Counted from the first letter of the stretch, positions 32,355 through 63,416 are shown. The stretch is 64,000 bases of DNA from Escherichia coli (GCF_030384885.1 NZ_CP128613.1), one strand, 5' to 3'. Numbers and translations: made by a program. The notes: generated by a model from the letters alone, not told the origin.

Positions 32355-32385
32355 AGAAACGTTAACACACCTTTAAACAAGACAA

Positions 32386-37429: not shown

Positions 37430-37679
37430 TCCCGGACCTCGTGCACAGGTAGGACCAATTTTTCTGTTCTTGATTCGCAAAACACGCACATCACGTAAGT
37501 GATTATGTTACATCAATTTAACATTAAGTTAACCAAGGCAAGGTCACAGAGCTGGAAAAAAAATGGTCTGACCGGTAGCTAAAGAGATAGACGAAAACGA
37601 AAAGCCCGCTTAATAACTGTTCACAGAAGCAGCGCGCAAAAATCAGCTGCCACACAACACAACAAAGCGAACCCTACTC
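37430..37679. promoter_or_regulatory. glcC / glcDEFGBA divergent promoter region
   Basis: Intergenic between divergent glcC and glcD; known regulated promoter pair in E. coli. Confidence 0.5.
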
Positions 37680-39179: not shown

Positions 39180-40231
39180 TGCTACGCGAGTGTGATTACA
39201 GCCAGGCGCTGCTTGAGCAGGTGAATCAGGCGATTAGCGATAAAACGCCGCTGGTGATTCAGGGCAGCAATAGCAAAGCCTTTTTAGGTCGTCCTGTCAC
39301 CGGGCAAGCGCTGGATGTGCGTTGTCATCGAGGCATTGTTAATTACGACCCGACCGAGCTGGTGATAACCGCGCGTGCCGGAACGCCGCTGGTGGCGATT
39401 GAAGCGGCGCTGGAGAGCGCGGGGCAAATGCTCCCCTGCGAGCCACCGCATTATGGTGACGAAGCCACCTGGGGCGGTATGGTCGCCTGCGGGCTGGCAG
39501 GGCCGCGTCGCCCGTGGAGTGGTTCGGTACGCGATTTTGTCCTCGGTACGCGCATTATTACCGGTACTGGAAAACATCTGCGCTTTGGTGGCGAAGTGAT
39601 GAAAAACGTTGCCGGATACGATCTCTCGCGGTTAATGGCCGGAAGCTACGGCTGTCTTGGCGTGCTCACTGAAATCTCGATGAAAGTGTTGCCGCGACCG
39701 CGCGCCACACTGAGCTTGCGTCGGGAAATAAGCCTGCAAGAAGCCATGAGTGAAATCGCCCAGTGGCAACTCCAGCCATTACCCATTAGTGGCTTATGTT
39801 ACTTCGACAATGCGTTGTGGATCCGCCTTGAAGGCGGTGAAGGATCGGTAAAAGCAGCACGTGAACTGCTGGGTGGCGAAGAGGTTGCGGGTCAGTTCTG
39901 GCAGCAATTGCGTGAACAACAACTGCCGTTCTTCTCATTACCGGGCACTTTATGGCGTATTTCCTTACCCACCGATGCGCCGATGATGGATTTACCCGGC
40001 GAGCAACTGATCGACTGGGGCGGCGCGTTACGTTGGCTGAAATCGACAGCCGATGACAATCAAATCCATCGCATTGCCCGCAACGCAGGCGGTCATGCGA
40101 CCCGCTTTAGTGCCGGAGACGGTGGCTTTGCCCCGCTACCGGCTCCTTTATTCCGCTATCACCAGCAGCTTAAACAGCAGCTCGACCCTTGCGGCGTGTT
40201 TAACCCCGGTCGCATGTACGCGGAACTTTAA
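39179..40231 (+). CDS. glcE: glycolate oxidase FAD-binding subunit
   Basis: Track ORF 350 aa MLRECDYSQALLEQVNQAISDKTPLVIQG... Confidence 0.95.
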   Translation: MLRECDYSQALLEQVNQAISDKTPLVIQGSNSKAFLGRPVTGQALDVRCHRGIVNYDPTELVITARAGTPLVAIEAALESAGQMLPCEPPHYGDEATWGGMVACGLAGPRRPWSGSVRDFVLGTRIITGTGKHLRFGGEVMKNVAGYDLSRLMAGSYGCLGVLTEISMKVLPRPRATLSLRREISLQEAMSEIAQWQLQPLPISGLCYFDNALWIRLEGGEGSVKAARELLGGEEVAGQFWQQLREQQLPFFSLPGTLWRISLPTDAPMMDLPGEQLIDWGGALRWLKSTADDNQIHRIARNAGGHATRFSAGDGGFAPLPAPLFRYHQQLKQQLDPCGVFNPGRMYAEL

Positions 40232-40241
40232 GGAGCAGGCT

Positions 40242-41465
40242 ATGCAAACCCGGTTAACTGAAGAGATGCTTCAGAACGCGCGTGCGCTGGAAGCCGACAG
40301 CATCCTGCGCGCCTGTGTTCACTGTGGATTTTGTACCGCAACCTGCCCAACTTATCAGCTTTTAGGCGATGAACTGGACGGGCCGCGCGGGCGCATCTAT
40401 CTGATTAAACAGGTGCTGGAGGGCAACGAAGTCACGCTTAAAACGCAGGAGCATCTCGATCGCTGTCTCACTTGTCGCAATTGTGAAACCACCTGTCCTT
40501 CTGGTGTGCGCTATCACAATTTGCTGGATATCGGGCGTGATATTGTCGAGCAGAAAGTGAAACGCCCACTGCCAGAACGAATGCTGCGCGAAGGGTTGCG
40601 CCAGGTTGTGCCGCGTCCGGCGGTCTTCCGTGCGCTGACGCAGGTAGGGCTGGTGCTGCGACCATTGTTACCAGAGCAAGTCAGAGCAAAATTGCCCGCT
40701 GGAACCATGAAAGCCAAACCGCGTCCGCCGCTGCGCCATAAGCGCCGGGTTTTAATGCTGGAAGGCTGCGCCCAACCTACGCTTTCGCCCAATACCAACG
40801 CGGCAACTGCGCGAGTGCTGGATCGTCTGGGGATCAGCGTGACGCCAGCTAATGAAGCAGGCTGTTGTGGCGCGGTGGACTATCATCTTAATGCGCAAGA
40901 GAAAGGGCTGGCGCGGGCGCGCAATAATATTGATGCCTGGTGGCCCGCGATTGAAGCAGGTGCCGAGGCAATTTTACAAACCGCCAGCGGTTGCGGCGCG
41001 TTCGTGAAAGAGTATGGGCAGATGCTGAAAAGTGATGCGTTGTACGCCGATAAAGCGCGTCGGGTCAGTGAACTGGCGGTCGATTTAGTCGAACTTCTGC
41101 GCAAGGAACCGCTGGAAAAACTGGCAATTCGCGGCGATAAAAAACTGGCCTTCCACTGCCCGTGTACCCTACAACATGCGCAAAAGCTGAACGGCGAAGT
41201 GGAAAAAGTGTTACTTCGTCTTGGATTTACCTTAACGGACGTTCCCGACAGCCATCTGTGCTGCGGCTCTGCGGGAACATATGCGTTAACGCATCCCGAT
41301 CTGGCGCGCCAGCTGCGGGATAACAAAATGAATGCGCTGGAAAGCGGCAAACCGGAAATGATCGTCACCGCCAACATTGGTTGCCAGATGCATCTGGCGA
41401 GTGCCGGTCGTACCTCTGTGCGTCACTGGATTGAAATTGTAGAACAAGCCCTTGAAAAGGAATAA
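40242..41465 (+). CDS. glcF: glycolate oxidase iron-sulfur subunit
   Basis: Track ORF 40053..41465; start trimmed to MQTRLTEEMLQNARALEADSILRACVHCGFCTATCPTYQ (407 aa), preceded by aggag. Confidence 0.95.
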   Translation: MQTRLTEEMLQNARALEADSILRACVHCGFCTATCPTYQLLGDELDGPRGRIYLIKQVLEGNEVTLKTQEHLDRCLTCRNCETTCPSGVRYHNLLDIGRDIVEQKVKRPLPERMLREGLRQVVPRPAVFRALTQVGLVLRPLLPEQVRAKLPAGTMKAKPRPPLRHKRRVLMLEGCAQPTLSPNTNAATARVLDRLGISVTPANEAGCCGAVDYHLNAQEKGLARARNNIDAWWPAIEAGAEAILQTASGCGAFVKEYGQMLKSDALYADKARRVSELAVDLVELLRKEPLEKLAIRGDKKLAFHCPCTLQHAQKLNGEVEKVLLRLGFTLTDVPDSHLCCGSAGTYALTHPDLARQLRDNKMNALESGKPEMIVTANIGCQMHLASAGRTSVRHWIEIVEQALEKE

Positions 41466-41469
41466 CAAA

Positions 41470-41874
41470 ATGAAAACTAAAGTCATTCTTAGCCAGCAAA
41501 TGGCGAGTGCAATTATTGCCGCAGGTCAGGAAGAGGCGCAGAAAAATAACTGGTCTGTTTCCATTGCTGTTGCCGATGACGGCGGTCATCTGCTGGCGTT
41601 AAGTCGCATGGACGATTGCGCGCCGATTGCGGCTTACATCTCCCAGGAGAAAGCGCGTACCGCCGCGCTGGGGCGTCGTGAAACTAAGGGCTATGAAGAG
41701 ATGGTGAACAACGGACGTACCGCGTTCGTGACTGCGCCGTTACTGACGTCGCTGGAAGGTGGCGTACCGGTTATTGTGGATGGGCAAATTATTGGTGCCG
41801 TGGGCGTTTCTGGTTTAACCGGAGCACAGGATGCGCAGGTCGCGAAAGCGGCAGCAGCGGTGTTGGCGAAATAA
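41470..41874 (+). CDS. glcG: GlcG (heme-binding-like protein of glc operon)
   Basis: Track ORF 41452..41874; start trimmed to MKTKVILSQQMASAIIAAG (134 aa). Confidence 0.93.
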   Translation: MKTKVILSQQMASAIIAAGQEEAQKNNWSVSIAVADDGGHLLALSRMDDCAPIAAYISQEKARTAALGRRETKGYEEMVNNGRTAFVTAPLLTSLEGGVPVIVDGQIIGAVGVSGLTGAQDAQVAKAAAAVLAK

Positions 41875-41895
41875 GCGAAAACGAGGAGATAAACA

Positions 41896-44067
41896 ATGAG
41901 TCAAACCATAACCCAGGGCCGTTTACGCATTGACGCCGACTTTAAACGTTTTGTGGATGAAGAAGTTTTGCCTGGCGTGGAACTGGATGCTGCCGCGTTC
42001 TGGCGCAATGTTGATGAGATTGTTCACGATCTGGCGCCAGAAAATCGTCAGTTGCTGGCAGACCGCGATCGCATTCAGGCGGCGCTTGATGAGTGGCATC
42101 GCAGCAATCCGGGGCCGGTAAAAGATAAAGCGGCCTATAAATCTTTCCTGCGTGAACTGGGCTACCTGGTGCCACAGCCTGACCACGTTACGGTGGAAAC
42201 CACGGGCATCGACAGCGAAATCACCAGTCAGGCGGGGCCACAGCTGGTGGTTCCGGCAATGAATGCTCGCTACGCGCTGAACGCGGCGAACGCTCGCTGG
42301 GGATCGCTGTACGACGCGCTATACGGCAGTGACATCATCCCGCAGGAAGGGGCGATGGTCAGCGGCTACGATCCGCAGCGCGGTGCGCTGGTTATCGCCT
42401 GGGTTCGACGTTTCCTCGATGAATCACTGCCGCTGGAAAATGGCAGCTATCAGGATGTGGTGGCGTTTAGCGTGGTCGACAAACAATTACGTATCCAGTT
42501 GAAAAATAGTCAAGAAAGCACGTTACGTACACCGGCACAGTTTGTCGGTTACCGTGGCGATGCCGCTGCGCCAACCTGCATTTTGCTGAAAAATAACGGC
42601 CTGCATATCGAGCTACAAATCGATGCCAACGGGCGGATTGGCAAAGACGATCCGGCGCACATCAACGATGTTATCGTCGAAGCGGCCATCAGTACCATTC
42701 TCGACTGTGAAGATTCGGTCGCAGCGGTTGATGCGGAAGATAAAATCCTACTGTACCGCAACCTGCTGGGCCTGATGCAGGGGACTCTGCAAGAGAAAAT
42801 GGAGAAAAACGGTCGGCAAATCGTGCGTAAACTGAATGACGATCGTCAGTACACCGCCGCCGATGGCTCTGAAATTTCTCTGCACGGACGTTCGCTGCTG
42901 TTTATCCGCAACGTAGGTCATTTGATGACCATTCCTGTGATTTGGGACAGCGAAGGTAATGAAATTCCGGAAGGTATTCTTGATGGCGTCATGACTGGTG
43001 CGATTGCCCTCTACGACTTAAAAGTGCAGAAAAACTCGCGTACCGGCAGTGTTTATATTGTGAAACCGAAAATGCACGGTCCACAGGAAGTGGCTTTTGC
43101 CAACAAACTGTTTACCCGCATTGAGACAATGCTTGGTATGAAACCGAATACCCTGAAAATGGGCATTATGGATGAAGAACGCCGGACCTCGCTGAACTTG
43201 CGTAGCTGTATCGCTCAGGCGAGCAACCGCGTGGCGTTTATCAACACTGGCTTCCTCGACCGTACCGGCGATGAGATGCATTCGGTGATGGAAGCGGGCC
43301 CGATGCTGCGTAAAAACCAGATGAAATCGACGCCGTGGATCAAAGCCTACGAGCGCAATAACGTGCTTTCCGGCCTGTTCTGCGGGCTGCGCGGTAAAGC
43401 GCAAATCGGTAAAGGGATGTGGGCAATGCCGGACCTGATGGCAGACATGTACAGCCAGAAGGGCGATCAGTTACGCGCCGGGGCGAACACGGCCTGGGTT
43501 CCGTCGCCAACTGCCGCTACACTCCATGCGCTGCACTACCATCAAACCAACGTACAGAGTGTGCAAGCCAACATTGCCCAGACCGAGTTCAATGCTGAAT
43601 TTGAACCGCTGCTGGACGATCTGCTGACCATTCCGGTTGCTGAAAACGCTAACTGGTCGGCACAAGAGATCCAACAAGAGCTGGATAACAACGTACAGGG
43701 GATTCTGGGTTACGTGGTGCGCTGGGTGGAGCAGGGGATTGGTTGTTCAAAAGTGCCGGATATTCACAACGTGGCGCTGATGGAAGACCGTGCAACGTTG
43801 CGTATCTCCAGCCAGCATATCGCCAACTGGTTACGTCACGGTATTTTGACCAAAGATCAGGTGCATGCGTCGCTGGAGAACATGGCGAAAGTGGTGGATC
43901 AGCAAAATGCTGGCGATCCGGCATATCGTCCGATGGTCGGGAATTTCGCTAACTCGTGTGCCTTTAAAGCTGCCAGCGATTTGATCTTCCTCGGCGTGAA
44001 ACAGCCAAACGGTTATACCGAACCGTTATTACACGCCTGGCGTTTACGTGAAAAAGAAAGTCATTAA
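41896..44067 (+). CDS. glcB: malate synthase G
   Basis: Track ORF 723 aa [27 protein letters not shown]... Confidence 0.97.
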
Positions 44068-44422
44068 TAGCATCAAAAAAGCCCCGGCAAGTTTTATTGT
44101 CGGGGCTATGATAGTAACTGCGGTAGTATATTTATCCCGGAAATAACCGGGGCGATTATCAGGGTTTAACAATATTAAATACCCGTAGCGCATCACTAGC
44201 GGGACTAAAACAACATTATGGACATCTTTACGATACTCTGCGCCTGTGTGTGCGGAACAGAAACCCTTACCCGATATACTTGTTATGCCAGAGGTAGCAA
44301 TTGCGTTAGCGGCGTGCTGTTGCTGTAAAGTATAACGCCTATATTTTACAGTTCAGTCCTCTTTTGCTTATTACAAACCTTAAATATATCAAGTATATAA
44401 AGATAATAAGAGACTGAACAAT

Positions 44423-46105
44423 ATGGTTACCTGGACCCAAATGTATATGCCGATGGGAGGACTGGGGCTATCCGCTCTGGTCGCCCTGATCCCGATAATA
44501 TTCTTCTTCGTTGCACTCGCGGTATTACGTCTGAAAGGGCATGTTGCTGGAGCAATAACCCTTATATTATCTATCCTGATTGCGATATTCGCCTTTAAAA
44601 TGCCAATTGATATGGCATTTGCTGCTGCGGGCTATGGCTTTATTTATGGATTATGGCCTATTGCGTGGATTATTGTCGCGGCGGTATTCCTGTATAAATT
44701 AACCGTTGCCAGCGGGCAGTTTGATATTATCCGCAGTTCGGTTATCTCCATCACCGATGATCAGCGTTTGCAGGTGTTACTGATTGGTTTCTCCTTTGGC
44801 GCACTGCTGGAAGGAGCGGCTGGCTTTGGCGCGCCGGTGGCGATTACAGGCGCTCTGCTGGTGGGGCTGGGCTTCAAACCGTTATATGCGGCGGGGTTGT
44901 GTCTGATTGCCAACACTGCGCCGGTGGCGTTTGGTGCGTTGGGCGTGCCGATTCTGGTCGCTGGTCAGGTAACGGGAATCGATCCGTTTGATATTGGCGC
45001 AATGGCGGGACGTCAGTTACCGTTCCTGTCGGTTCTTGTGCCATTCTGGCTGGTGGCAATGATGGACGGTTGGAAAGGGGTGAAAGAGACCTGGCCAGCG
45101 GCGCTGGTTGCAGGGGGAAGCTTCGCTGTCACGCAGTTCTTTACCTCTAACTACATTGGTCCGGAACTGCCGGATATTACTTCGGCGCTGGTGAGTATTG
45201 TCTCACTCGCTTTATTCCTTAAAGTCTGGCGGCCGAAAAATACCGAAACGGCAATCAGCATGGGGCAATCCGCAGGTGCGATGGTGGTAAATAAGCCATC
45301 TTCTGGCGGTCCCGTGCCTTCAGAATATAGTCTGGGGCAAATCATTCGTGCATGGTCACCGTTTTTAATCTTAACGGTACTGGTTACCATCTGGACGATG
45401 AAACCATTTAAAGCGTTATTTGCTCCGGGCGGTGCGTTTTATTCGCTGGTGATTAATTTCCAGATCCCTCATTTGCATCAACAAGTGTTGAAAGCGGCAC
45501 CCATTGTCGCCCAGCCAACGCCAATGGATGCGGTGTTTAAATTCGACCCCCTCTCTGCTGGCGGCACCGCTATTTTTATTGCGGCGATTATCTCTATCTT
45601 CATCCTCGGCGTGGGGATCAAGAAAGGTATTGGCGTCTTTGCCGAAACGCTAATTAGCCTGAAGTGGCCGATACTGTCGATTGGCATGGTGCTGGCGTTC
45701 GCCTTCGTCACCAACTATTCCGGTATGTCCACCACGCTGGCGCTGGTACTGGCGGGCACAGGCGTGATGTTCCCGTTCTTCTCACCGTTCCTTGGCTGGT
45801 TGGGTGTATTTCTCACGGGTTCGGATACGTCTTCTAACGCCCTGTTTGGTTCACTGCAATCAACGACGGCGCAGCAAATCAACGTCTCTGACACCCTGCT
45901 GGTGGCAGCAAACACCAGCGGTGGCGTGACCGGCAAGATGATCTCCCCGCAATCTATCGCCGTGGCCTGTGCCGCGACAGGTATGGTGGGTCGAGAATCT
46001 GAACTGTTCCGCTACACCGTGAAGCACAGTCTGATTTTTGCCAGCGTTATCGGCATTATCACCCTGCTGCAGGCGTATGTGTTTACCGGAATGTTAGTCT
46101 CGTAA
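44423..46105 (+). CDS. glcA: glycolate/lactate permease
   Basis: Track ORF 560 aa [29 protein letters not shown]... Confidence 0.95.
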
Positions 46106-46107
46106 AT

Positions 46108-46140
46108 CAATAAAGCCGGATGATCGTTAATATCATCCGG
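46108..46140 (+). terminator. rho-independent terminator of glcA
   Basis: gccggatgat cgttaat atcatccggc followed by ttcattctttg. Confidence 0.7.
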
Positions 46141-46599
46141 CTTCATTCTTTGTTCATTACATTATTCTGTCTTATTAATTTAAAATCATTTCCTGCTTTA
46201 TTATCTATACAGTAATAATGTATTGCATTCAGATAACATACTAAATAATTAAGGGTGTGAGAATATCTGTTTTTTTATCACGCAAAACAAGTCTGTATTA
46301 ATTATGTTCGCTTGATGAGCAAACACCGTTCTATCTGTTGCTTTTGCAATCTAAATCGTTAAAACTATCAACGAATTTATATGGTTACGCTGTGAAAAGT
46401 TGTTGATTTTTTGTTTGTTGAAATTTCGTAAAAATAACCTGGCAGATATCGTATAGGGGATATTCTTATAGATTTCACCTGTTTTTCTATAAATGATGCC
46501 GTTTTCTTAAGAATGGAGGAAGTTATTAGAGAAAATAAAGCATAAAACTATTTTCCCAGTTACAAATTCTTTAATTTTATTTTGTCACTTGCGTTATTA

Positions 46600-47592
46600 A
46601 TGAATAAGAAATTTAAATATAAAAAATCGCTTTTAGCGGCTATTTTAAGCGCAACCTTATTAACCGGTTGTGATGGCGGTGGTTCAGGATCGTCCTCCGA
46701 TACGCCGTCTGTAGATTCTGGAGCAGGGACTTTGCCGGAAGTGAAACCCGATCCAATACCAACCCCGGAACCGACACCTGAGCCGACGCCGGACCCAGAA
46801 CCTACACCAGACCCGACACCCGATCCAGAGCCGACACCAGAACCGGAGCCAGAACCTGTTCCTACGAAAACGGGGTATCTGACCCTGGGCGGAAGCCAGC
46901 GGGTAACTGGTGCTACCTGTAATGGTGAATCCAGCGACGGCTTTACCTTTACGCCAGGCAATACCGTGAGTTGTGTGGTGGGCAGTACGACCATTGCAAC
47001 ATTCAACACCCAGTCAGAGACTGCGCGTAGCCTGCGTGCGGTTGACAAAGTGTCGTTTAGCCTTGAGGACGCGCAGGAGCTGGCGGATTCTGCAAATAAG
47101 AAAACCAACGCCATCTCTCTGGTGACGTCCAGCGACAGTTGCCCCGCAGATGCAGAACAGCTTTGTCTTACTTTCTCGTCAGTGGTTGATCGCGCGCGTT
47201 TTGAAAAACTGTATAAGCAAATTGATCTGGCAACAAACGATTTCAGCAAGCTGGTCAATGAAGAGGTGGAAAACAATGCTGCGACTGATAAAGCGCCGTC
47301 CACCCATACCTCAACGGTAGTGCCAGTCACGACAGAGGGAACAAAACCGGATCTGAACGCGTCCTTCGTGTCGGCTAACGCGGAACAGTTTTATCAGTAT
47401 CAACCAACTGAAATCATTCTTTCCGAAGGCCATCTGGTGGATAGCCTGGGGAACGGTGTTGCTGGCGTAGACTACTACACCAATTCAGGCCGTGGCGTAA
47501 CTGACGAAAACGGTAAATTCTCCTTTAGCTGGGGCGAAACCATCTCCTTTGGTATCGATACCTTTGAACTGGGCTCAGTACGCGGCAATAAG
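46600..47592 (+). pseudogene. yghJ: sslE/yghJ lipoprotein mucinase, 5' fragment only (~330 of ~1500 codons), then out-of-context tail to stop at 47664
   Basis: Track ORF 46582..47664; MNKKFKYKKSLLAAILSATLLTGCDGGG lipobox, PEPT-repeat linker, collinear with SslE N-terminus up to ...ISFGIDTFELGSVRGNK, after which similarity stops. Confidence 0.8.
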
Positions 47593-47603
47593 ATCCGCAG
47601 AAA

Positions 47604-47861
47604 ATTTTTAACTATATCCAGCTTACGCCTGTGCGTAAGGAGGGAATTGTCGGTTATGCAGTGAAGCCGGGGGCAGATCGTTCTCTGTTCGATGCCAGCG
47701 GTTTCAGGGAAGGCGATATCGCCATTGCGCTCAATCAGCAGGATTTCACTGATCCACGAGCAATGATTGCTCTGATGCGGCAGTTACCTTCAATGGATTC
47801 CATTCAACTTACGGTTTTACGCAAGGGTGCGCGCTACGACATTTCCATCGCGCTGCGCTAA
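47604..47861 (+). pseudogene. gspC: gspC (T2SS-beta) 3' fragment encoding only the C-terminal PDZ-like region
   Basis: Frame continuing into track ORF 47631..47861 reads ...NYIQLTPVRKEGIVGYAVKPGADRSLFDASGFREGDIAIALNQQDFTDPRAMIALMRQLPSMDSIQLTVLRKGARYDISIALR; no 5' part present. Confidence 0.7.
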
Positions 47862-47890
47862 CCGCATTTAATCCAGGAGAATCATTCATC

Positions 47891-48807
47891 GTGTTTTGGC
47901 GTGATATTACGTTGTCGGCCTGGCGTAAGAAGACAACTGGCCTCAAAACAAAAAAGCGTTTACTGCCGCTGGTGCTGGCAGCGGCATTATGCAGTTCACC
48001 GGTCTGGGCGGAAGAAGCCACTTTCACCGCTAATTTTAAAGATACCGACCTGAAATCGTTCATCGAAACCGTCGGCGCTAACCTTAATAAAACCATCATT
48101 ATGGGGCCGGGCGTACAGGGGAAAGTGAGTATTCGTACCATGACCCCACTCAATGAACGCCAGTATTACCAGCTATTCCTTAACCTGCTGGAAGCACAGG
48201 GGTATGCCGTCGTACCGATGGAAAACGACGTGCTGAAGGTGGTGAAATCCAGCGCCGCGAAAGTCGAGCCGCTGCCGCTGGTCGGTGAAGGCAGCGACAA
48301 CTACGCGGGCGATGAAATGGTCACCAAAGTAGTGCCGGTACGTAATGTGTCGGTCCGCGAACTGGCACCGATTTTGCGCCAGATGATCGACAGCGCAGGC
48401 TCAGGCAACGTTGTTAATTACGATCCCTCCAACGTAATTATGCTCACCGGACGCGCCTCCGTCGTAGAGCGCCTGGCGGTCTGATGGACGATCAGGCGGG
48501 AGAAAGCGTGGCGAAAGTGCCGCTGCTGGGCGATATCCCGTTGATTGGTAACCTGTTTAAATCGACGGCGGATAAAAAAGAAAAACGTAACCTGATGGTG
48601 TTTATCCGCCCGACCATTCTGCGTGATGGTATGGCGGCAGACGGCGTGTCGCAGCGCAAATATAACTATATGCGCGCCGAACAGATCTATCGCGATGAGC
48701 AAGGCTTAAGCCTGATGCCGCACACCGCGCAGCCGATATTGCCTGCGCAAAATCAGGCTCTACCGCCGGAAGTTCGTGCGTTCCTTAATGCCGGGAGAAC
48801 GCGTTAA
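47891..48807 (+). pseudogene. gspD: gspD secretin with large internal deletion/frameshift (N0-domain fragment 47891..48484 plus C-terminal fragment 48484..48807)
   Basis: Track ORFs of 197 aa (signal peptide + N0 domain, ends ...VNYDPSNVIMLTGRASVVERLAV) and 107 aa (secretin C-terminal motif VPLLGDIPLIGNLF) in different frames; intact GspD is ~650 aa. Confidence 0.8.
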
Positions 48808-50300
48808 TGGTGCCTGTAGCACAGGAAACCACTGCTAACACCGTGCGTCTGCCCTACAGTTTCAGCCGTCGGTTTAGCCTGGTGGCATGGTGCGAAGCGT
48901 CGCTGGAGATCCTCCATGTGCATCCGTTGTCGCTCTCTGTTTTGCAGGAGCTGCAACGGGGGCTGAACGCGCCCTTTACGCTGCGGCAAATCGACGAAGC
49001 CGAATTTGAACAGCGGCTGAATGCGGTCTGGCAACGGGACTCTTCCGAGGCCCGCCAGCTGATGGAAGATCTCGGTTCTGCTGAGGACTTTTTTACCCTC
49101 GCGGAAGAACTGCCGGAAACGGAAGATCTGCTGGAAAGTGACGATGATGCGCCGATCATCAAACTGATCAACGCCATGCTGGCAGAGGCGATTAAAGAAG
49201 GCGCTTCGGATATCCACATCGAGACGTTTGAAAAGAGTCTGGTGATCCGTTTTCGCGTTGACGGCACATTACATGAAATGCTGCGTCCGGGGCGCAAACT
49301 GGCCTCGCTGCTGGTATCGCGTATTAAGGTGATGGCACGGCTGGATATCGCCGAAAAACGCGTACCGCAGGATGGGCGCATTGCGCTGCTGCTGGGCGGT
49401 CGGGCGATTGACGTGCGTGTCTCCACCATGCCTTCCGCCTGGGGCGAGCGCGTGGTGCTGCGACTGCTGGACAAAAACCAGGCCCGCCTGACGCTGGAAC
49501 GTCTGGGGTTGAGCCATGAACTGACCGCGCAGTTGCGCCAGCTACTGCACAAACCGCACGGCATCTTTCTGGTGACGGGGCCGACAGGTTCCGGCAAAAG
49601 CACCACGCTGTACGCCGGATTGCAGGAGCTGAACAACCACTCGCGCAACATTCTCACGGTTGAAGACCCCATCGAATACATGATTGAAGGGATCGGTCAG
49701 ACACAGGTTAACACCCGCGTCGGCATGACCTTCGCCCGTGGCCTGCGCGCGATTTTGCGTCAGGACCCGGATGTGGTGATGGTCGGTGAAATCCGCGATA
49801 CCGAAACCGCAGAAATCGCCGTCCAGGCGTCATTGACCGGACACCTGGTACTTTCCACGCTGCATACCAACACGGCGGTGGGGGCGATCACGCGTTTGCA
49901 GGATATGGGCGTTGAGCCTTTCCTGCTCTCTTCCAGCCTGACGGGCGTGATGGCGCAGCGACTTGTTCGCACACTGTGCACCGACTGCCGCCAGCCCGCG
50001 CCTGCCACTGATGAAGAAAAACGCCTGCTGGGAATTACCGATGTGCGTACCGTCACGCTGTACCATCCGCAGGGCTGCCCCGCCTGTAATCACAAAGGTT
50101 TTCGCGGGCGTACTGCCATCCATGAGCTGATCGTGGTAGACGCCACATTGCGTGATTTGATTCACCGTCAGGCCGGGGAACTGGAGCTGGAACGTTATGT
50201 CCGGCAACACTCTGCGGGTATCCGCAGCAACGGCATTGAGAAAGTGCTTGCCGGAGAAACCTCTCTCGATGAAGTGCTGCGGGTAACGATGGAGGCGTAA
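48807..50300 (+). CDS. gspE: type II secretion ATPase GspE (reading frame intact)
   Basis: Track ORF 497 aa; Walker [10 protein letters not shown], tetracysteine CTDC...CPAC motif. Confidence 0.9.
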
Positions 50301-50995
50301 TGGCACTGTTTTACTATCAGGCGTTACAGCGTAATGGTCGCAAAACCAAAGGCATGATTGAGGCGGATTCCGCGCGTCATGCCCGCCAGTTGTTGCGCGG
50401 TAAAGAGCTTATCCCCGTACACATTGAAGCCCGGATGAATGCTTCGTCAGGGGGAATGTTGCAGCGTCGGCGACACGCACATCGTCGTGTGGCGGCGGCA
50501 GATCTGGCGCTGTTCACTCGCCAACTGGCAACGCTGGTGCAGGCAGCAATGCCGCTGGAAACCTGCTTACAGGCGGTCAGTGAGCAAAGTGAAAAACTGC
50601 ATGTAAAAAGCCTCGGAATGGCGCTACGCAGCCGGATTCAGGAAGGTTACACCCTGTCGGACAGCCTGCGCGAACATCCCCGCGTCTTTGACTCCCTGTT
50701 TTGTTCGATGGTGGCTGCCGGAGAAAAATCCGGGCATCTCGACGTGGTGCTCAATCGCCTGGCGGATTACACCGAACAGCGACAGCGCCTGAAATCACGC
50801 CTGCTGCAGGCCATGCTCTATCCGCTGGTACTGCTGGTGGTGGCAACGGGCGTGGTCACTATTTTGCTGACGGCGGTGGTGCCGAAAATTATCGAACAGT
50901 TTGATCATCTCGGACACGCGCTGCCTGCCTCCACCCGCGCTCTTATCGCTATGAGCGACGCGTTGCAGACCAGCGGCGTTTACTGGCTGACCGGT
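50300..50995 (+). pseudogene. gspF: gspF inner-membrane platform protein, 3'-truncated (~230 of ~400 codons); ORF continues into unrelated sequence to 51088
   Basis: Track ORF 50300..51088 262 aa; GspF-like N-terminal cytoplasmic domain and first TM; last ~30 residues non-GspF. Confidence 0.75.
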
Positions 50996-51239
50996 GCCAT
51001 GTATCACGGGCCTGTGCATCCATTAAGGAAAGCATCCCTGAACGTTGCATCAGGTCACGCCAGATTTCGCGATCGAGATTGCGTGTGATGGCTTTCATTG
51101 CGGTTTCCGGTTTCTCCATCAGCCAGCAGCCGCAGCGAAAATCCTGTTTCATGGCCCAGTCCGGGGCGGCTTTACCGCCAATACTTTCTGTCATTGCTGA
51201 TATTTCAGCCAGTTGCCGGATAAGTGTGTCGTGTAGTGG

Positions 51240-52539
<1,300 letters not shown>

Positions 52540-52620
52540 TGATGTGGGGGGAATCTGGTTGAGTTCGGTAGAATTGATTTGGAGGCAGAACGCTTAAATT
52601 GTGGCGTTCTGAAACGAAAA

Positions 52621-52644
52621 ACGGACCTCCGTGGAGGTCCGTTG
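52621..52644 (-). terminator. pheV terminator hairpin
   Basis: aacggacctccgtggaggtccgtt perfect inverted repeat just 3' of the tRNA, followed on the minus strand by ttttcgtttc. Confidence 0.6.
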
Positions 52645-52654
52645 ATATGAATTT

Positions 52655-52730
52655 TGGTGCCCGGACTCGGAATCGAACCAAGGACACGGGGATTTTCAAT
52701 CCCCTGCTCTACCGACTGAGCTATCCGGGC
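52655..52730 (-). tRNA. pheV: tRNA-Phe (GAA anticodon)
   Basis: Reverse complement reads GCCCGGATAGCTCAGTCGGTAGAGCAGGGGATTGAAAATCCCCGTGTCCTTGGTTCGATTCCGAGTCCGGGCACCA, the E. coli tRNA-Phe sequence. Confidence 0.97.
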
Positions 52731-52835
52731 AACGGGGCGCATTAAACCTGATTCGCCTCGTCTCGTCAATCAAATTTCTTCAATTTACTGCAGACTGCAC
52801 AATCTATCATCACTTTGTCGCTATTGCACGCACTG

Positions 52836-53543
52836 TCAGGCAAACCAGGCGGTCCAGGCTGCGGAAAGCGGCATTGCCAGAAGGAGTGCTGGAAGCATGT
52901 TGACCACCGGGAACATTTTAATGCCACAGATGCGTAAGCCGGTTGCCAGCAGCAATAAACCGCCCACGGCGCTGAAGTCTGCCATCATCGACGGTGTGGT
53001 CAGCGGTAATATCAGTGCGGCAGCCCACGCCAGCGTTAACTGGATGATCAGTAATGGAATGCTAATCACCGATACCGCGATGCCCAGTGAGCAGGCGAAG
53101 ATCATTGCCGTAAAAAAATCAAGAAATGACTTGGCGATTAAAATACTCGGATCGCCGGTCATACCTTCGTTCATCGCACCGAAGATCCCGGTGCCGCTGG
53201 CGCAAAACAGGACAATAATCGCGACAAAATTCTGAATAAAAGATTCATGCGCTGGCTTCTTACGTGAGTGACGAAACAGATTTTGTGCTTTGGCGACTGC
53301 TGTATTGACACCTTTCTCCAGCAAACAAATTTCGCCAATTAGAGCGCCAAGTAGCGTAGCTAAAACCATCGCTGGAAGGTTGGCGCATTTCACCACCAGT
53401 AAAATACCAATCCCCAGCGATGCCAGACCAAAAATAGATGTCATGGAGACGCGGATACGTTCCGGTAAACGTTGGCTGAGCAGAGCGCCGATAACGCCAC
53501 CCAGTAAGACTGCACTCGCGTTGATAAAAGGGCCGATGACCAC
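52836..53543 (-). CDS. yqgA: DUF554 inner membrane protein
   Basis: Track ORF 235 aa MVIGPFINASAVLLGGVIGALLSQRLPERIRVSMTS... Confidence 0.9.
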   Translation of the reverse strand: MVIGPFINASAVLLGGVIGALLSQRLPERIRVSMTSIFGLASLGIGILLVVKCANLPAMVLATLLGALIGEICLLEKGVNTAVAKAQNLFRHSRKKPAHESFIQNFVAIIVLFCASGTGIFGAMNEGMTGDPSILIAKSFLDFFTAMIFACSLGIAVSVISIPLLIIQLTLAWAAALILPLTTPSMMADFSAVGGLLLLATGLRICGIKMFPVVNMLPALLLAMPLSAAWTAWFA

Positions 53544-53935
53544 AAGAGTTCCTGTTAACTGTATTGTTTGATTTTCTTATTATGAACTTTTTGCCTTGTT
53601 GATGGCTTGTTTGGTCGCAAAGTCCTGGCTTGCACGCTTTAGCGAAAGGTGCCATGATTGCGCGAATTTTCTCCTCTCTGTACGGAGTTTGCCCGATGCA
53701 CGCCACCTCCTTACATTCTCTCGCTTATCGCCGTTTCGCGCGAAACTCCTCCCTTTTTCTGCTCATGCGGTGAAGTTAACGCACGCTCACTGCAGGACAA
53801 CAGTAAAATCAGAGCGTTTCTGCTTTTACTGATGTCTGGCGGTCGGAGCTGGTGACCAGTTTGACCCATATCTCGTGGGGCAGGGTTTTTCACCTTGTCC
53901 GGTATTCTTACTTCCCCGAAACGGGTTTTGCACTT

Positions 53936-56071
53936 ATGAAATCAATGAATATTGCCGCCAGTAGTGAACTGGTATCCCGACTTTCTACTCATCGCCGCGT
54001 GGTGGCGTTGGGAGATACTGATTTTACGGACGTCGCGGCAGTCGTCATTACCGCTGCGGATAGCCGCAGTGGCATTCTTGCGTTGCTTAAGCGCACCGGT
54101 TTTCATCTACCGGTGTTTTTGTATTCCGAACATGTTGTTGAATTACCCGCGGGCGTTACGGCGGTAATCAACGGCAACGAGCAGCAGTGGCTGGAGCTGG
54201 AATCCGCAGCCTGTCAGTATGAAGAGAATTTGCTGCCACCGTTTTATGACACGCTGACGCAGTACGTTGAGATGGGCAACAGCACCTTTGCTTGCCCTGG
54301 GCATCAACATGGTGCGTTCTTTAAAAAGCATCCTGCTGGTCGTCATTTTTATGATTTCTTTGGCGAGAACGTCTTTCGTGCCGATATGTGTAACGCCGAC
54401 GTGAAACTGGGCGATTTGCTTATTCATGAAGGTTCGGCGAAGGATGCACAGAAATTCGCAGCCAAAGTCTTTCATGCCGATAAAACCTATTTTGTGCTGA
54501 ACGGCACATCGGCAGCGAATAAAGTGGTGACGAATGCGCTATTAACGCGTGGCGATCTGGTGCTCTTCGACCGTAACAACCATAAGTCGAATCATCATGG
54601 TGCGTTGATTCAGGCGGGGGCGACGCCGGTCTATCTGGAAGCTTCACGTAACCCGTTTGGTTTCATTGGCGGTATTGATGCGCACTGTTTTAATGAAGAG
54701 TATCTGCGCCAGCAAATTCGCGACGTTGCGCCAGAAAAAGCAGACCTGCCGCGTCCGTTTCGCCTGGCGATTATTCAGCTGGGAACCTATGACGGCACTG
54801 TCTATAACGCCCGACAGGTGGTCGATACCGTTGGGCATCTGTGTGATTACATTCTGTTTGATTCCGCGTGGGTCGGTTACGAACAGTTTATCCCGATGAT
54901 GGCAGATAGCTCGCCGCTGCTGTTAGAGCTTAACGAAAACGATCCGGGGATCTTTGTGACGCAGTCGGTGCATAAACAGCAGGCGGGCTTCTCGCAGACA
55001 TCGCAGATCCATAAAAAAGATAACCATATTCGCGGGCAGGCGCGTTTTTGCCCGCATAAGCGGTTAAATAATGCCTTTATGCTCCATGCTTCTACCAGCC
55101 CGTTCTATCCGCTGTTTGCCGCGCTGGACGTTAACGCCAAAATTCATGAAGGGGAGAGTGGGCGTCGGCTGTGGGCGGAGTGCGTTGCGTTGGGGATTGA
55201 AGCGCGCAAGGCGATTCTTGCGCGCTGTAAGCTGTTCCGCCCGTTTATTCCACCCGTTGTTGATGGCAAATTGTGGCAGGATTATCCGACGTCAGTGTTA
55301 GCCAGCGACCGTCGTTTTTTCAGTTTTGAGCCGGGGGCGAAGTGGCACGGCTTTGAAGGATATGCCGCGGAGCAGTATTTTGTCGATCCGTGTAAGCTGT
55401 TACTGACCACACCAGGTATTGATGCTGAAACCGGTGAATATAGCGACTTTGGCGTTCCGGCGACGATTCTGGCGCATTATCTGCGTGAGAACGGTATTGT
55501 GCCGGAGAAGTGCGATCTCAACTCCATTCTGTTCTTATTAACGCCGGCGGAAAGCCACGAGAAGCTGGCACAACTGGTGGCGATGCTGGCGCAGTTTGAA
55601 CAGCATATTGAGGATGACTCACCGCTGGCGGAGGTGTTGCCGAGCGTTTATAACAAATATCCGGTGCGCTATCGCGACTACACTTTGCGCCAGTTGTGTC
55701 AGGAGATGCATGATCTGTATGTCAGTTTCGACGTCAAAGACCTACAAAAAGCGATGTTCCGCCAGCAGAGTTTCCCGTCAGTGGTGATGAATCCCCAGGA
55801 TGCGCATAGCGCTTATATTCGCGGTGAAGTGGAGTTGGTGCGGATTCGTGATGCCGAAGGGCGAATTGCGGCAGAAGGGGCTTTGCCTTATCCCCCTGGC
55901 GTGCTTTGCGTGGTGCCTGGGGAAGTCTGGGGCGGGGCTGTCCAGCGTTATTTCCTTGCGCTGGAAGAAGGGGTGAATTTGCTGCCAGGTTTTTCACCGG
56001 AGCTGCAAGGTGTCTATAGCGAAACCGATTCGGATGGTATGAAACGGTTGTACGGGTATGTGTTGAAGTAA
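53936..56071 (+). CDS. speC: ornithine decarboxylase, constitutive
   Basis: Track ORF 53852..56071; start trimmed to MKSMNIAASSELVSRLSTHRRVVALGDTDF (711 aa). Confidence 0.96.
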   Translation: MKSMNIAASSELVSRLSTHRRVVALGDTDFTDVAAVVITAADSRSGILALLKRTGFHLPVFLYSEHVVELPAGVTAVINGNEQQWLELESAACQYEENLLPPFYDTLTQYVEMGNSTFACPGHQHGAFFKKHPAGRHFYDFFGENVFRADMCNADVKLGDLLIHEGSAKDAQKFAAKVFHADKTYFVLNGTSAANKVVTNALLTRGDLVLFDRNNHKSNHHGALIQAGATPVYLEASRNPFGFIGGIDAHCFNEEYLRQQIRDVAPEKADLPRPFRLAIIQLGTYDGTVYNARQVVDTVGHLCDYILFDSAWVGYEQFIPMMADSSPLLLELNENDPGIFVTQSVHKQQAGFSQTSQIHKKDNHIRGQARFCPHKRLNNAFMLHASTSPFYPLFAALDVNAKIHEGESGRRLWAECVALGIEARKAILARCKLFRPFIPPVVDGKLWQDYPTSVLASDRRFFSFEPGAKWHGFEGYAAEQYFVDPCKLLLTTPGIDAETGEYSDFGVPATILAHYLRENGIVPEKCDLNSILFLLTPAESHEKLAQLVAMLAQFEQHIEDDSPLAEVLPSVYNKYPVRYRDYTLRQLCQEMHDLYVSFDVKDLQKAMFRQQSFPSVVMNPQDAHSAYIRGEVELVRIRDAEGRIAAEGALPYPPGVLCVVPGEVWGGAVQRYFLALEEGVNLLPGFSPELQGVYSETDSDGMKRLYGYVLK

Positions 56072-56077
56072 GAATAA

Positions 56078-56112
56078 AAAAACGGGTCACCTTCTGGCGA
56101 CCCGTTTTTCTT
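56078..56112. terminator. hairpin between convergent speC and nupG (bidirectional terminator candidate)
   Basis: aaaaaaacgggtcacc ttct ggcgacccgtttttctt : stem flanked by A-run and T-run. Confidence 0.6.
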
Positions 56113-56119
56113 TGCGTAA

Positions 56120-57376
56120 TTAGTGGCTAACCGTCTGTGTGCCTGTCGGGACACGAACGTGTTTATATTTGAACATCGCCATGAACGCGAAGGCCAGAAT
56201 CACGGAGTAACCTGCGAAAATCAGCCATACGGTCTGCCAGTCGGTAATGCCGTTTTGGGTGTACATCTCAACCACTTTACCGCTCACGATGCCGCCGAGG
56301 ATACAGCCGAAGCCGTTAGTCATCATCAGGAACATCCCCTGCGCACTGGCGCGAATTGCCGGGCTAACTTCTTTTTCGACAAACACCGAACCAGAGATGT
56401 TGAAGAAGTCGAATGCGCAACCGTAAACGATCATCGACAGTACCAGCAGCACGGTACCGAACGGAGTCGGGTCGCCGTAAGCAAACAGCGCAAAACGCAG
56501 GATCCACGCCACGATACTGATCATCATTACGTTCTTAATACCGTAGCGGCTTAAGAAGAACGGGATGGTCAGAATGAACAGGGTTTCAGAGATCTGCGAA
56601 ATCGACATGATGATTGACGCATGCTGCACGATGAAGCTGCTGGCAAACATCGGATCTTTGTCGAAGCTGTGCAGGAAGGTATTACCGAACATGTTGGTAA
56701 TCTGCAGTTCCGCGCCCAGCAGCATTGAGAAGATGAAGAAGATTGCCATACGCTTGTTTTTAAACAGCGCGAATGCGTCGAGGCCCAGCAGGGTTGTCCA
56801 GCTCTGATTCGCTTGCTGTTTAGCAACCGGAATATGCGGCAGAGTCAGGGTAAACAGAACCAGAATGGCGGAAAGGGCTGCGCCAATATATAGCTGCATG
56901 TGGCTTAATTCGAAGCCGGACAGGCTCACCACCCACATTGCCATGATAAAGCCGATGGTGCCCCAGATACGGATTGGCGGGAAGTCAGTAACGATATCCA
57001 TCCCGGCATTTTGCAGGCGATAGTAAGAGATGGTGTTGATTAACCCAAGCGTTGGCATATAAGCAAACGAGTTAATCAATATCACAAGGAACATCGCTTC
57101 CGGCGTCGTGACCTGTGCTGCCATGAACAGCGTGATAGCGCCAATGGTGTGGCAAATGGCATATACCCATTTCGCACTTAACCATTTGTCGGCCACAATC
57201 CCCAGCAGCGCAGGCATAAAGACCGCGGCGATACCCAGTGAGCTATAAACTGCGCCAATAGAAGCACCGTCAAACTTCAGGGTAACAAACATATAGGAAC
57301 CGAGGGTCGTCAGCCAACTTCCCCACAGACAGAACTGCAGAAAAGAGAGGATTTTCAGCTGCAGCTTAAGATTCAT
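56120..57376 (-). CDS. nupG: nucleoside:H+ symporter
   Basis: Track ORF 56120..57424; start trimmed to MNLKLQLKILSFLQFCLWGSWLTTLGSYMF (418 aa). Confidence 0.95.
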   Translation of the reverse strand: MNLKLQLKILSFLQFCLWGSWLTTLGSYMFVTLKFDGASIGAVYSSLGIAAVFMPALLGIVADKWLSAKWVYAICHTIGAITLFMAAQVTTPEAMFLVILINSFAYMPTLGLINTISYYRLQNAGMDIVTDFPPIRIWGTIGFIMAMWVVSLSGFELSHMQLYIGAALSAILVLFTLTLPHIPVAKQQANQSWTTLLGLDAFALFKNKRMAIFFIFSMLLGAELQITNMFGNTFLHSFDKDPMFASSFIVQHASIIMSISQISETLFILTIPFFLSRYGIKNVMMISIVAWILRFALFAYGDPTPFGTVLLVLSMIVYGCAFDFFNISGSVFVEKEVSPAIRASAQGMFLMMTNGFGCILGGIVSGKVVEMYTQNGITDWQTVWLIFAGYSVILAFAFMAMFKYKHVRVPTGTQTVSH

Positions 57377-57577
57377 GTTAATTTCCTCACATCGTGATGC
57401 GGATGAGTGTTTGAAAAAGCACATTTGACCGTGCGAGATGATGCGATTCTATCAACTTCGCAGACTGGTTTTTTGTTACCTGTGGCAAATAATTGCAAAC
57501 ATTCCCAATTTGCAAAACGAAATTGTGATGTGGATAGCATTTTTGCCCCTGAGCATCGTCAGGGGCGGTAAGTGGAA

Positions 57578-58684
<1,107 letters not shown>

Positions 58685-58721
58685 TTATGCAAGTTGCCGG
58701 AGACGTGCTCCGGCACTGTTT

Positions 58722-59000
<279 letters not shown>

Positions 59001-59024
59001 TCATCCTCTTTATCGACTCACGCG

Positions 59025-60077
59025 CTAAACCGGCGCGCCAGTGCGTAACTGCTGTAACAAACGCTCCACGGGAGCCGCCAGGCCAACTGACGGCGGTTGC
59101 GCTAAGTTATACCAGAGCGCATTGCCTTCATCCATGCAGCCGGTGAATGACGACACGGGAAGCCACATAGGCACAATATCTAAGTGGAAATGGCTGAAGG
59201 TATGGCGAAACGCGGTCAGCTGCGTCAGGTTATCGGCAGCAATCTGCCGTTGCGCCAGCCATTGCCGCAAACTTTCTTCATCGGCAAACTGCGGGAAACA
59301 GTATAAACCGCCCCACAATCCGCTCGGCGGACGCTGCGCCAGAAATACTTCATCTTTGTGCTGTAACAGCAGAAAGTAGCCGGTGCGCTCCGGTAGCGTC
59401 TGTTTCGGTTTTTTGCCCGGATAAAGCGACCAGCTATTGTTGGCGGCGGCAATACATCCGTTTTGTAGCGGACAGAGCGAACATTTCGGTTTCGAACGCG
59501 TACAAATCATCGCGCCCAAATCCATCATCGCCTGGTTAAACCGTTCCACGCCAACCGCGGGCGTCACCTGCTCGCTTAAACTCCATAGTTTGTTCTCGAC
59601 CTCTTTTTTCCCAGGCCAGCCGCTTACAGCATAGCAGCGCGCCAGCACCCGTTTGACGTTACCGTCGAGAATCGGAAAGTGCTTACCCAGAGAAAGCGAG
59701 AGAATCGCGCCTGCGGTGGAACGCCCGACGCCCGGCAGTGCTGCAACTTCCTCAAAGGTTTCCGGGAATTTACCGCCGTGTAAGGCCGCCACTTGTTGTG
59801 CCGCTTTATGTAGGTTGCGCGCGCGGGCGTAATAGCCAAGCCCGGTCCACAAGTGGAGAACTTCGTCCAGCGGCGCATTGGCGAGATCGGTCACCGTCGG
59901 GAAGCGCGCCATAAAGCGTTCAAAATAGGGGATAACGGTCGCAACCTGAGTTTGTTGCAACATCACTTCTGAGAGCCATACTTTGTAGGGCGTCTTGTCA
60001 ATTTGCCAGGGCAGAGATTTTCGCCCGTATTTATCGTACCAGTCCAGAACCTGGGCTGAAAATTGCGACGCTTGCAT
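59025..60077 (-). CDS. mutY: adenine DNA glycosylase
   Basis: Track ORF 59025..60107; start trimmed to [20 protein letters not shown] (350 aa); [4Fe-4S] Cys cluster [17 protein letters not shown]. Confidence 0.96.
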
Positions 60078-60237
60078 GGTCACCGAATTCACTGTTGTTG
60101 GGGGCAAGATTGCAGCACAGCGACGGCAGGGTGTAAACCGGAACTTTCCGCAGCCACGGCCTTATCATGCTTGCATCCGGCAACTAACTTTGGATAATGC
60201 CCGTTTTCAGAACACTTTCACAAGCGACTAAATCTTT

Positions 60238-60957
60238 ATGAAAAACGACGTCATCTCACCGGAATTTGATGAAAACGGCCGCCCACTGCGCCGTATCCGT
60301 AGTTTTGTGCGCCGCCAGGGGCGACTGACCAAAGGCCAGGAACATGCGCTGGAAAACTACTGGCCGGTGATGGGCGTTGAGTTCAGCGAAGATATGCTGG
60401 ATTTCCCTGCGCTTTTTGGCCGTGAAGCGCCGGTGACGCTTGAGATTGGTTTTGGCATGGGGGCGTCGCTGGTGGCAATGGCTAAAGATCGCCCTGAGCA
60501 GGACTTCCTCGGCATTGAAGTGCATTCACCAGGCGTTGGTGCGTGCCTGGCTTCTGCGCATGAAGAAGGCTTAAGCAACCTGCGCGTGATGTGTCATGAT
60601 GCGGTTGAAGTGCTACACAAAATGATTCCTGACAATTCATTGCGCATGGTGCAGCTCTTTTTCCCTGACCCGTGGCACAAAGCGCGCCATAATAAACGCC
60701 GTATCGTTCAGGTGCCGTTTGCCGAACTGGTAAAAAGCAAACTGCAACTGGGTGGCGTATTCCATATGGCGACCGACTGGGAACCTTATGCGGAACATAT
60801 GCTTGAAGTGATGTCTTCTATTGACGGTTATAAAAACCTGTCAGAGAGCAATGATTACGTACCGCGTCCGGCATCACGTCCGGTGACGAAATTTGAACAA
60901 CGTGGTCATCGTCTTGGTCACGGAGTATGGGACTTAATGTTCGAGAGGGTGAAATAA
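60238..60957 (+). CDS. trmB: tRNA (guanine-N7)-methyltransferase
   Basis: Track ORF 239 aa [43 protein letters not shown]... Confidence 0.95.
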
Positions 60958-61283
60958 TGGCAAAGAACCGTAGCCGTCGTCTGCGTAAAAAAATGCACAT
61001 CGACGAATTCCAGGAATTAGGATTTTCGGTGGCATGGCGATTCCCGGAAGGTACATCGGAAGAACAGATTGATAAAACCGTTGATGACTTTATTAACGAG
61101 GTTATCGAACCGAACAAACTGGCCTTTGACGGCAGCGGTTATCTGGCCTGGGAAGGTCTGATCTGCATGCAGGAAATCGGCAAATGCACCGAAGAACATC
61201 AGGCGATTGTGCGTAAGTGGCTGGAAGAGCGCAAACTGGATGAGGTACGCACCAGCGAACTTTTCGACGTTTGGTGGGACTAA
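60957..61283 (+). CDS. yggL: DUF469 protein YggL
   Basis: Track ORF 60927..61283; start trimmed to [23 protein letters not shown] (108 aa); TAATG overlap with trmB. Confidence 0.9.
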   Translation: MAKNRSRRLRKKMHIDEFQELGFSVAWRFPEGTSEEQIDKTVDDFINEVIEPNKLAFDGSGYLAWEGLICMQEIGKCTEEHQAIVRKWLEERKLDEVRTSELFDVWWD

Positions 61284-61296
61284 GAAAGCATACGGG

Positions 61297-61405
<109 letters not shown>

Positions 61406-61466
61406 GTACTTTGTTATCAATCTGGGGCCAGCAAATGCTGGCCTGATTTGTTCTTGAGGGAAGACT

Positions 61467-62186: not shown

Positions 62187-62361
62187 TCCTCTATTTTAAG
62201 ACGGCATAATACTTTTTTATGCCGTTTAATTCTTCGTTTTGTTACCTGCCTCTAACTTTGTAGATCTCCAAAATATATTCACGTTGTAAATTGTTTAACG
62301 TCAAATTTCCCATACAAAGCTAAGGGATAATGCGTAGCGTTCACGTAACTGGAGGAATGAA

Positions 62362-63408: not shown

Positions 63409-63416
63409 TCACCTCG

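Follow-up and report, generated by a model that had tools for sequence, protein, structure and literature searches.

A probable two-step deletion scar between the T2SS-beta operon and a pheV-associated island in a near-clone of Escherichia coli 2013C-4282

The T2SS-beta system of E. coli K-12 occupies the same locus as the one described here, between glcA and pheV, and has been inactivated by an internal deletion that left gene fragments behind. K-12 keeps yghJ-pppA-yghG(gspS)-yghF(gspC')-yghE(gspL')-yghD beside pheV, while the middle of the operon, from gspC' to gspL', has been lost. The locus analysed here differs from that of K-12 in that gspE alone is intact, three separate deletions are present, gspM has been lost as well, and the remnant of the operon runs into island DNA. 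A second case of comparable decay is provided by the bovine strain E2863, in which the 3' end of the gsp operon is lost at the border of the pheV island and the neighbouring IS3-family element is 92% identical to the one reported below. However, in E2863 the end of gspE is directly followed by the IS and no DUF4942 remains, whereas in our sequence the gspF junction is free of IS and the element lies 242 bp further on. The sslE-gsp locus of many genomes shows IS1 insertions or shortened sslE or gspD genes. The IS-mediated collapse of tRNA-associated islands, including adjacent deletions caused by IS3-family elements, is an established general phenomenon, and in this respect the present locus, with unrelated IS flanks derived from two island ends, no duplication and a lost integrase, is nothing unusual.

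Two strains supply the gene order with which the locus was compared. In E2855 the order is gspE-gspF-gspG-H-I-J-K-L-yghD(gspM), 281 bp, a DUF4942 gene on the opposite strand, DUF957, a DUF5983 remnant, an IS3-family element and LEE genes (ler); the stretch of E2855 examined ends before pheV, and the association of the island with pheV is taken from 2013C-4282 and from our own sequence. DUF4942 is the outermost gene of the island region on the gsp side (the distal end), with its 3' end toward gspM, and the same orientation is found here. The second strain, 2013C-4282 (NZ_CP027579.1), is a member of Escherichia cryptic clade I (PMC10100065). Its order is glcA-sslE-pppA-gspS2-gspC..gspL-yghD, a capsule cluster, an IS110 remnant, DUF4942, an IS3-family element and tRNA-Phe; the sslE-gsp cluster is intact. 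The capsule cluster is annotated with an ABC transporter permease, an ATP-binding protein, a HAD-family hydrolase, a hypothetical protein, a capsule biosynthesis protein, a capsular polysaccharide biosynthesis protein, kdsB, a polysaccharide biosynthesis/export family protein, KpsE and a KpsF/GutQ-family isomerase, and from the gene order we take it to be the kps group-2 locus.

The 64-kb stretch of DNA analysed (hereafter the window) comes from a near-clone of 2013C-4282. Window positions 1-45149 differ from that chromosome by 5 mismatches and one gap, and identity is complete (100%) over positions 44149-47592 and over the 13 kb of the right-hand side, 50988-64000. The DUF4942::IS3-pheV junction is the same in both, and in both 2013C-4282 and E2855 the DUF4942 gene lies on the same strand relative to gsp and pheV as in the window. 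The three strains differ in how much of this gene is left. E2855 has the whole gene; 2013C-4282, which shares the IS insertion point with the window, has codon 39 to the stop (C6996_RS22300, already annotated as 'incomplete; missing N-terminus'); and the window retains codons 39-119 of 280, its copy being joined to gspF at nt 357. We read the region as a two-step deletion scar between the T2SS-beta (sslE-gsp) operon and the pheV-associated island, predicted to encode nothing functional, and put the probability of this reading at about 0.93. The features on which it is based are as follows, the junctions (J1-J3) having been mapped to the base against the 2013C-4282 architecture, with 2-9 bp shared at each.

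46600-47592, plus strand: 5' remnant of sslE (yghJ), nt 1-993 of 4,560, 100% identical to 2013C-4282 sslE through nt 993
47590-47592: J1, sslE nt 993 joined to gspC nt 683, AAG microhomology, 5,849 bp lost
47593-47861, plus strand: 3' remnant of gspC, nt 683-954, numbered from the shared AAG at 47590
47891-48479, plus strand: 5' part of gspD, nt 1-589, from comparison with 2013C-4282
48471-48479: J2, inside gspD, nt 589 joined to nt 1725, GGCGG-type microhomology, 1,144 bp lost, frameshifting
48480-48807, plus strand: 3' remnant of gspD, to nt 2061, with a Pfam Secretin match on the identical product in Logan contigs
48807-50300, plus strand: gspE, full length, 497 aa as in the reference gspE, an orphan ATPase gene
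50300-50989, plus strand: 5' remnant of gspF, codons 1-230 of 407, from DNA match, BLASTP and NCBIfam
50988-50989: J3, gspF nt 690 joined to DUF4942 nt 357, TG shared with the 2013C-4282 gspF allele, 22,152 bp lost relative to 2013C-4282
50990-51088, plus strand: nonsense tail of the truncated gspF ORF, 32 codons and a stop, antisense through the DUF4942 fragment
50988-51231, minus strand: DUF4942 gene fragment, nt 114-357 of 843, codons 39-119 of 280, from DNA and translation match
50949-51194, minus strand: 81-codon ORF, DUF4942 residues 51-119 from the internal Met51 plus 12 codons antisense to gspF
51232-52489, minus strand: complete IS3-family IS, 1,258 bp, orfA/orfB with frameshift, from NCBIfam and terminal repeats
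52490-52654: tRNA-proximal end of a pheV-type island, 165 bp, equal to the pheV-to-integrase sequence of strain B2
52655-52730, minus strand: tRNA-Phe (pheV), anticodon GAA, from ARAGORN and Rfam

When the remnants are held against a complete T2SS-beta cluster (sslE-pppA-gspS-gspCDEFGHIJKLM), gspE proves to be the sole intact gene; sslE, gspC, gspD and gspF are cut short, and pppA, gspS and gspG-M are gone. The gspD ORF (47891-48484) is terminated by a stop created by the frameshift. The gspE gene carries T2SSE Pfam domains, and its TAA stop overlaps the gspF ATG by 1 base at 50300. The whole gspF ORF extends over 50300-51088, but true GspF sequence is confined to its first 230 codons. In the comparison with the intact 407-aa GspF of 2013C-4282, BLASTP gave 228 identities in 232 positions (98%) over residues 1-232 and no match beyond, and the last gspF nucleotide matched in the DNA alignment is nt 690, that is, window position 50989. 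The NCBIfam GspF model (TIGR02120) scored 270.9 bits, below its curated cut-off of 424, and was covered at positions 1-230 of 401; the second T2SSF repeat (residues ~271-406) is missing, and the product is not a full-length GspF. The original prediction, that gspE is intact with its stop overlapping the start of gspF, that gspF is 3'-truncated after ~230 residues and that gspG-gspM are missing, agrees with these data: the gspE coordinates and the 497-aa length bear it out, the DNA alignment, BLASTP and NCBIfam all place the end of GspF at codon 230 with no in-frame continuation past it, and neither gspF from nt 691 onward nor gspG-gspL nor yghD (gspM) of 2013C-4282 left a trace anywhere in the 64-kb window.

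Between the end of gspF and the IS lies sequence of another kind. Positions 50990-51235 find matches in 3,724 of 5,426 complete E. coli genomes (megablast), and all the matches listed fall under genes annotated as 'DUF4942 domain-containing protein'. Aligned without gaps, 50988-51231 is 100% identical to 2013C-4282 and 99.6% identical to the E2855 gene for WP_001280498.1. The minus-strand frame read from the IS edge, DTLIRQLAEISAMTESIGG...ARDTWHRS, differs by one substitution from residues 39-119 of the 280-aa protein, and it then runs for 12 codons antisense through gspF (ASKRRWSATRRS, followed by a stop). From the original gene, the start and 38 N-terminal codons have been lost to the IS and 161 C-terminal codons (the 3' 486 nt) to J3. 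The Pfam DUF4942 domain (PF13708) comprises residues 87-275 of the intact protein, and ~33 of its 190 positions are retained. By identity the fragment belongs to the DUF4942 family (99.6%-100% in DNA, 68 of 69 aa to WP_001280498.1), but it stops at residue 119 and does not span the ~190-position domain, so that it is a gene remnant and not a DUF4942 member protein. A search for Rfam, promoter and terminator features in 50990-51231 returned nothing except one weak terminator-like hairpin at chance level, and a literature search on DUF4942 yielded incidental mentions and no functional study.

It had been proposed from the sequence of the window that ~230 bp of unassigned, non-IS DNA separate the truncated gspF from the IS and may be a remnant of a pheV-associated element. 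The stretch exists and is indeed neither gsp nor IS, although its size is 242-244 bp and not ~230 bp, and its origin turns out much as suggested, as it is an internal piece of DUF4942, a gene that in E2855 stands at the gsp-side end of the island. The minus-strand ORF at 50949-51194 is also present as described, with homologues in the same 3,724 of 5,426 complete genomes. A further possibility raised there, that of a gsp gene read on the wrong strand, was rejected, as the antisense overlap with gspF accounts for only 12 codons of the ORF.

All three junctions formed without involvement of an IS. The short runs of bases shared at each indicate that J1-J3 are probably illegitimate, microhomology-mediated deletions. 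J1 removed the 3' part of sslE, pppA, gspS2 and the 5' part of gspC; since both of its flanks are clonal sequence, 100% identical to 2013C-4282, it is likely to be recent and to have arisen in the window lineage once this had separated from 2013C-4282. For J3, the shared stretch extends up to TGACCGGT (50988-50995) with some other gspF alleles, and the 22,152 bp counted relative to 2013C-4282 take in gspG-M and all of kps. The gspF::DUF4942 junction is spanned by none of the 5,426 complete E. coli genomes. J1 and J2 (47590-47592 and 48471-48479) are two further deletions upstream at the same locus, which the original prediction did not mention. The clustering of three deletions in one operon of a near-clonal lineage, which elsewhere shows ~1 substitution per 10 kb against its sister strain, is a mildly notable point. 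It is conceivable, albeit rather unlikely, that three independent deletions reflect positive selection for the loss of SslE secretion, possibly also of the capsule, in a cryptic clade I sublineage and not neutral decay.

The near-identity with 2013C-4282 is interrupted in one place. Positions 48343-50987 of the window (gspD nt ~453 to gspF') differ from 2013C-4282 at ~96 sites, a divergence of 3%-4%, and are closer to R32_14_1F (98.7%). In the preceding 750 bp (gspC 3' and gspD 5'), only 2 sites differ from 2013C-4282, and both strains differ from R32_14_1F at 16. The left edge of the divergent tract is located inside gspD, ~750 bp to the right of J1 and not at that junction, while the right edge coincides with J3. 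Neither gsp allele recurs elsewhere in the collection; the nearest other sequences match the window allele at 98.5% and the allele of 2013C-4282 at 97.8%. A three-way comparison counted 73 unique sites in 2013C-4282, 25 in the window and 24 in R32_14_1F, numbers which do not decide the direction of the exchange. The tract is best read as the product of a homologous-recombination replacement in one of the two lineages, the right end of which would have been removed by J3. It might even have brought kps into 2013C-4282, in which case the ancestor of the window lineage was possibly E2855-like and without kps, and the J3 deletion would amount to ~6.0 kb instead of 22.2 kb. The identity of the DUF4942 fragment and the truncation of gspF are unaffected by the history of kps.

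The same tract is the main argument for a different history, in which the degraded gsp segment (47.6-51.0 kb), with J2 and J3 already present, was imported by homologous recombination into a 2013C-4282-like chromosome. The affinity of the tract to R32_14_1F, its distance from an otherwise near-clonal sister and its extension right up to J3 are all compatible with such an import. However, the tract begins within gspD and not at a junction, and J1 is flanked by fully clonal sequence, which implies that at least this deletion arose in place. Moreover, the right crossover must then lie in the 244-bp DUF4942 fragment or in the IS, the donor must carry the same rare DUF4942 SNP, and a donor bearing J2 or J3 was found in 0 of 5,426 genomes. 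We regard the import as improbable, and the segment is a DUF4942 remnant under either history.

Far less probable still is a function for the 81-codon ORF as a small gene, be it a neo-ORF or a domesticated N-terminal module of DUF4942, expressed from the IS or by read-through. It does have an ATG start and 81 open codons, and the junction persists in several isolates, but these isolates are near-clonal (99.98%-100% identical), which explains the persistence. The start is an internal methionine of the 280-aa protein and the frame upstream of it is open as far as the IS edge; the match to DUF4942 residues 51-119 (BLASTP E-value 1e-50) preserves only residues 87-119 of the domain, and the final 12 residues come from gspF read in antisense. 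The ORF gave no match in NCBIfam, and no promoter-like site was found in 50800-51400. Judged by its composition, the ORF is a by-product of the deletion and not a gene.

The junctions recur in independent assemblies. At least 11 contigs encode the exact 262-aa chimeric GspF' product (GspF residues 1-230 and the 32-residue tail). Logan assemblies of SRR16760859 and SRR14995614 are colinear with window positions 44300-51261 and 46633-51261, respectively, and cross J1, J2 and J3, and that of SRR12517544 is colinear with 50087-51261 and crosses J3. Identity between the contigs of these three runs and the window is 99.98%-100%, and all three contigs break off after the first 30 bp of the IS, the usual behaviour of short-read assemblies at a repeat. 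The notion that J3 is an assembly or scaffolding artefact and that gspF-gspM are really intact, which could appeal to the lack of this junction in any complete RefSeq E. coli genome, is effectively refuted by these three separate short-read runs.

The other boundary of the fragment is formed by the IS. The element has a transpos_IS3 match of 264 bits against a cut-off of 160 (NCBIfam) and imperfect terminal inverted repeats of 26 bp (TGTAGTGG...TTGGCCAC), as expected of an IS3-family transposase and its ends; the annotation of the sister strain gives a programmed frameshift, and many full-length, 100% identical copies of 1,258 bp exist in E. coli. The annotations name it only as 'IS3 family transposase', and its OrfA presumably resembles that of IS911. 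The bases next to the IS are TCG at its left end and AAA at its right end. There is no target-site duplication, and the uninterrupted targets, ...GTGTGTCG/ATTTGCAG in the DUF4942 gene of E2855 and ...GAGGGTAC/AAATTCTG in strain B2 (the slash marks the IS position), share no triplet. On the right, the site is 33 bp upstream of the ATG of the strain B2 tyrosine integrase; the integrase that adjoins pheV is absent, and what survives is limited to 165 bp of the interval that separates pheV from the integrase start. With up to 5 mismatches allowed, the 24 nt at the 3' end of pheV were not found repeated (as an attR) in the window, in L004 or in E2855, and the exact boundary of the island is not fixed by a repeat. 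The IS bridges two extremities of the island, the interior and the integrase of which are gone. With no duplication present, the probable cause is either an adjacent deletion mediated by the IS or recombination between two copies of it. Among the 5,426 genomes, 2013C-4282 alone has the junction of DUF4942 (nt 113/114) with the IS; as the junction is common to that strain and the window, it is likely to predate their split.

We infer from these comparisons that two steps would have produced the scar. In the older one, common to 2013C-4282, an IS3-family element would have joined DUF4942 nt 113/114 to the point 33 bp upstream of the integrase start, with removal of the integrase and the whole interior of the island. 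In the second step, confined to the window lineage, illegitimate recombination at a short homology, from TG up to TGACCGGT, may have fused gspF nt 690 to DUF4942 nt 357. It would have eliminated the 3' 534 nt of gspF, gspG-gspL, yghD (gspM) and the 3' 486 nt of DUF4942 and, if the direct ancestor was like 2013C-4282, the entire kps group-2 cluster and the IS110 remnant, 22,152 bp in total; this co-loss of the capsule locus is probable. The microhomology deletions from sslE to gspC and within gspD would complete the inactivation of the secretion system. The scar is a case of ordinary gene decay of a known kind, by microhomology deletion and IS activity, and not a new gene.

What is left is a T2SS-beta in which the pilotin, the prepilin peptidase, every pseudopilin and GspL/M are missing altogether, while sslE lacks its 3' three-quarters, the secretin its middle, GspF its second half and GspC the greater part of its length, and no function is expected of the region from its gene content. 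In annotation, pseudogene status is appropriate for gspF and the DUF4942 fragment, and the 81-codon ORF does not merit a gene call. The lineage is predicted to be unable to assemble T2SS-beta or to secrete SslE, and, if its ancestor resembled 2013C-4282, it would have lost a group-2 capsule locus too. Lacking an integrase, the remnant of the pheV island has presumably lost the ability to excise. Otherwise of little import, these predicted losses bear on the virulence-gene typing of cryptic clade I isolates.

The original prediction, a truncated gspF and missing gspG-gspM, captured only part of the decay of the sslE-gsp operon, as it was silent on two more deletions:

47590-47592: microhomology deletion of 5,849 bp, joining sslE nt 993 to gspC nt 683
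48471-48479: microhomology deletion of 1,144 bp inside gspD, frameshifting

The sslE-gspC deletion also removed pppA and gspS2. The segment at 48343-50987 (gspD nt ~453 to gspF nt 690) differs by 3-4% (~96 sites) from that of 2013C-4282, a near-clonal sister strain of Escherichia cryptic clade I, and is surrounded by ~58 kb showing 99.99-100% identity to this strain. The alleles of the window and of 2013C-4282 are each unique among 5,426 complete E. coli genomes. Judged from sequence comparison, this segment looks like a homologous-recombination tract, in the lineage of either the window or 2013C-4282.

Sister-strain annotation also assigned products to genes at some distance from the operon:

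~25170-35000 (28027-37858 in the coordinates used with that annotation): putative lipid gene cluster between yghS and yghO

Its annotated products include LptF and LptG paralogues (with lptF frameshifted) and a protein of lipopolysaccharide biosynthesis, alongside the spt product serine palmitoyltransferase, an acyl carrier protein, a fatty acyl-AMP ligase and an epimerase/dehydratase. On this annotation, the genes would form a sphingolipid-like lipid set, which is unusual for E. coli.

A strong Rfam match was found within the IS3-family element:

52299-52421, minus strand: isrC 'Hfq binding RNA' (RF01387), 145 bits against a gathering score of 39

Because the match lies wholly within orfA, RF01387 appears to model part of this IS3-family element.

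Related loci were noted in two other E. coli strains:

R32_14_1F, 30143-44544: different island downstream of yghD (gspM)
E2863 (NZ_AP018802.1), 6855-8092: gspE, then an IS3-family element

Besides hypothetical proteins of very large size, the R32_14_1F island encodes an AbiEii/AbiGii toxin, a TerB-N protein and a DEAD/DEAH helicase; its gene content resembles that of a defence island in the same pheV-side position. In E2863, a related element (92% identity to that of the window) directly follows gspE, and gspF-gspM, together with the island gene DUF4942, are deleted at the edge of a LEE-carrying pheV island. The gsp loss in E2863 is an independent parallel to that in the window.
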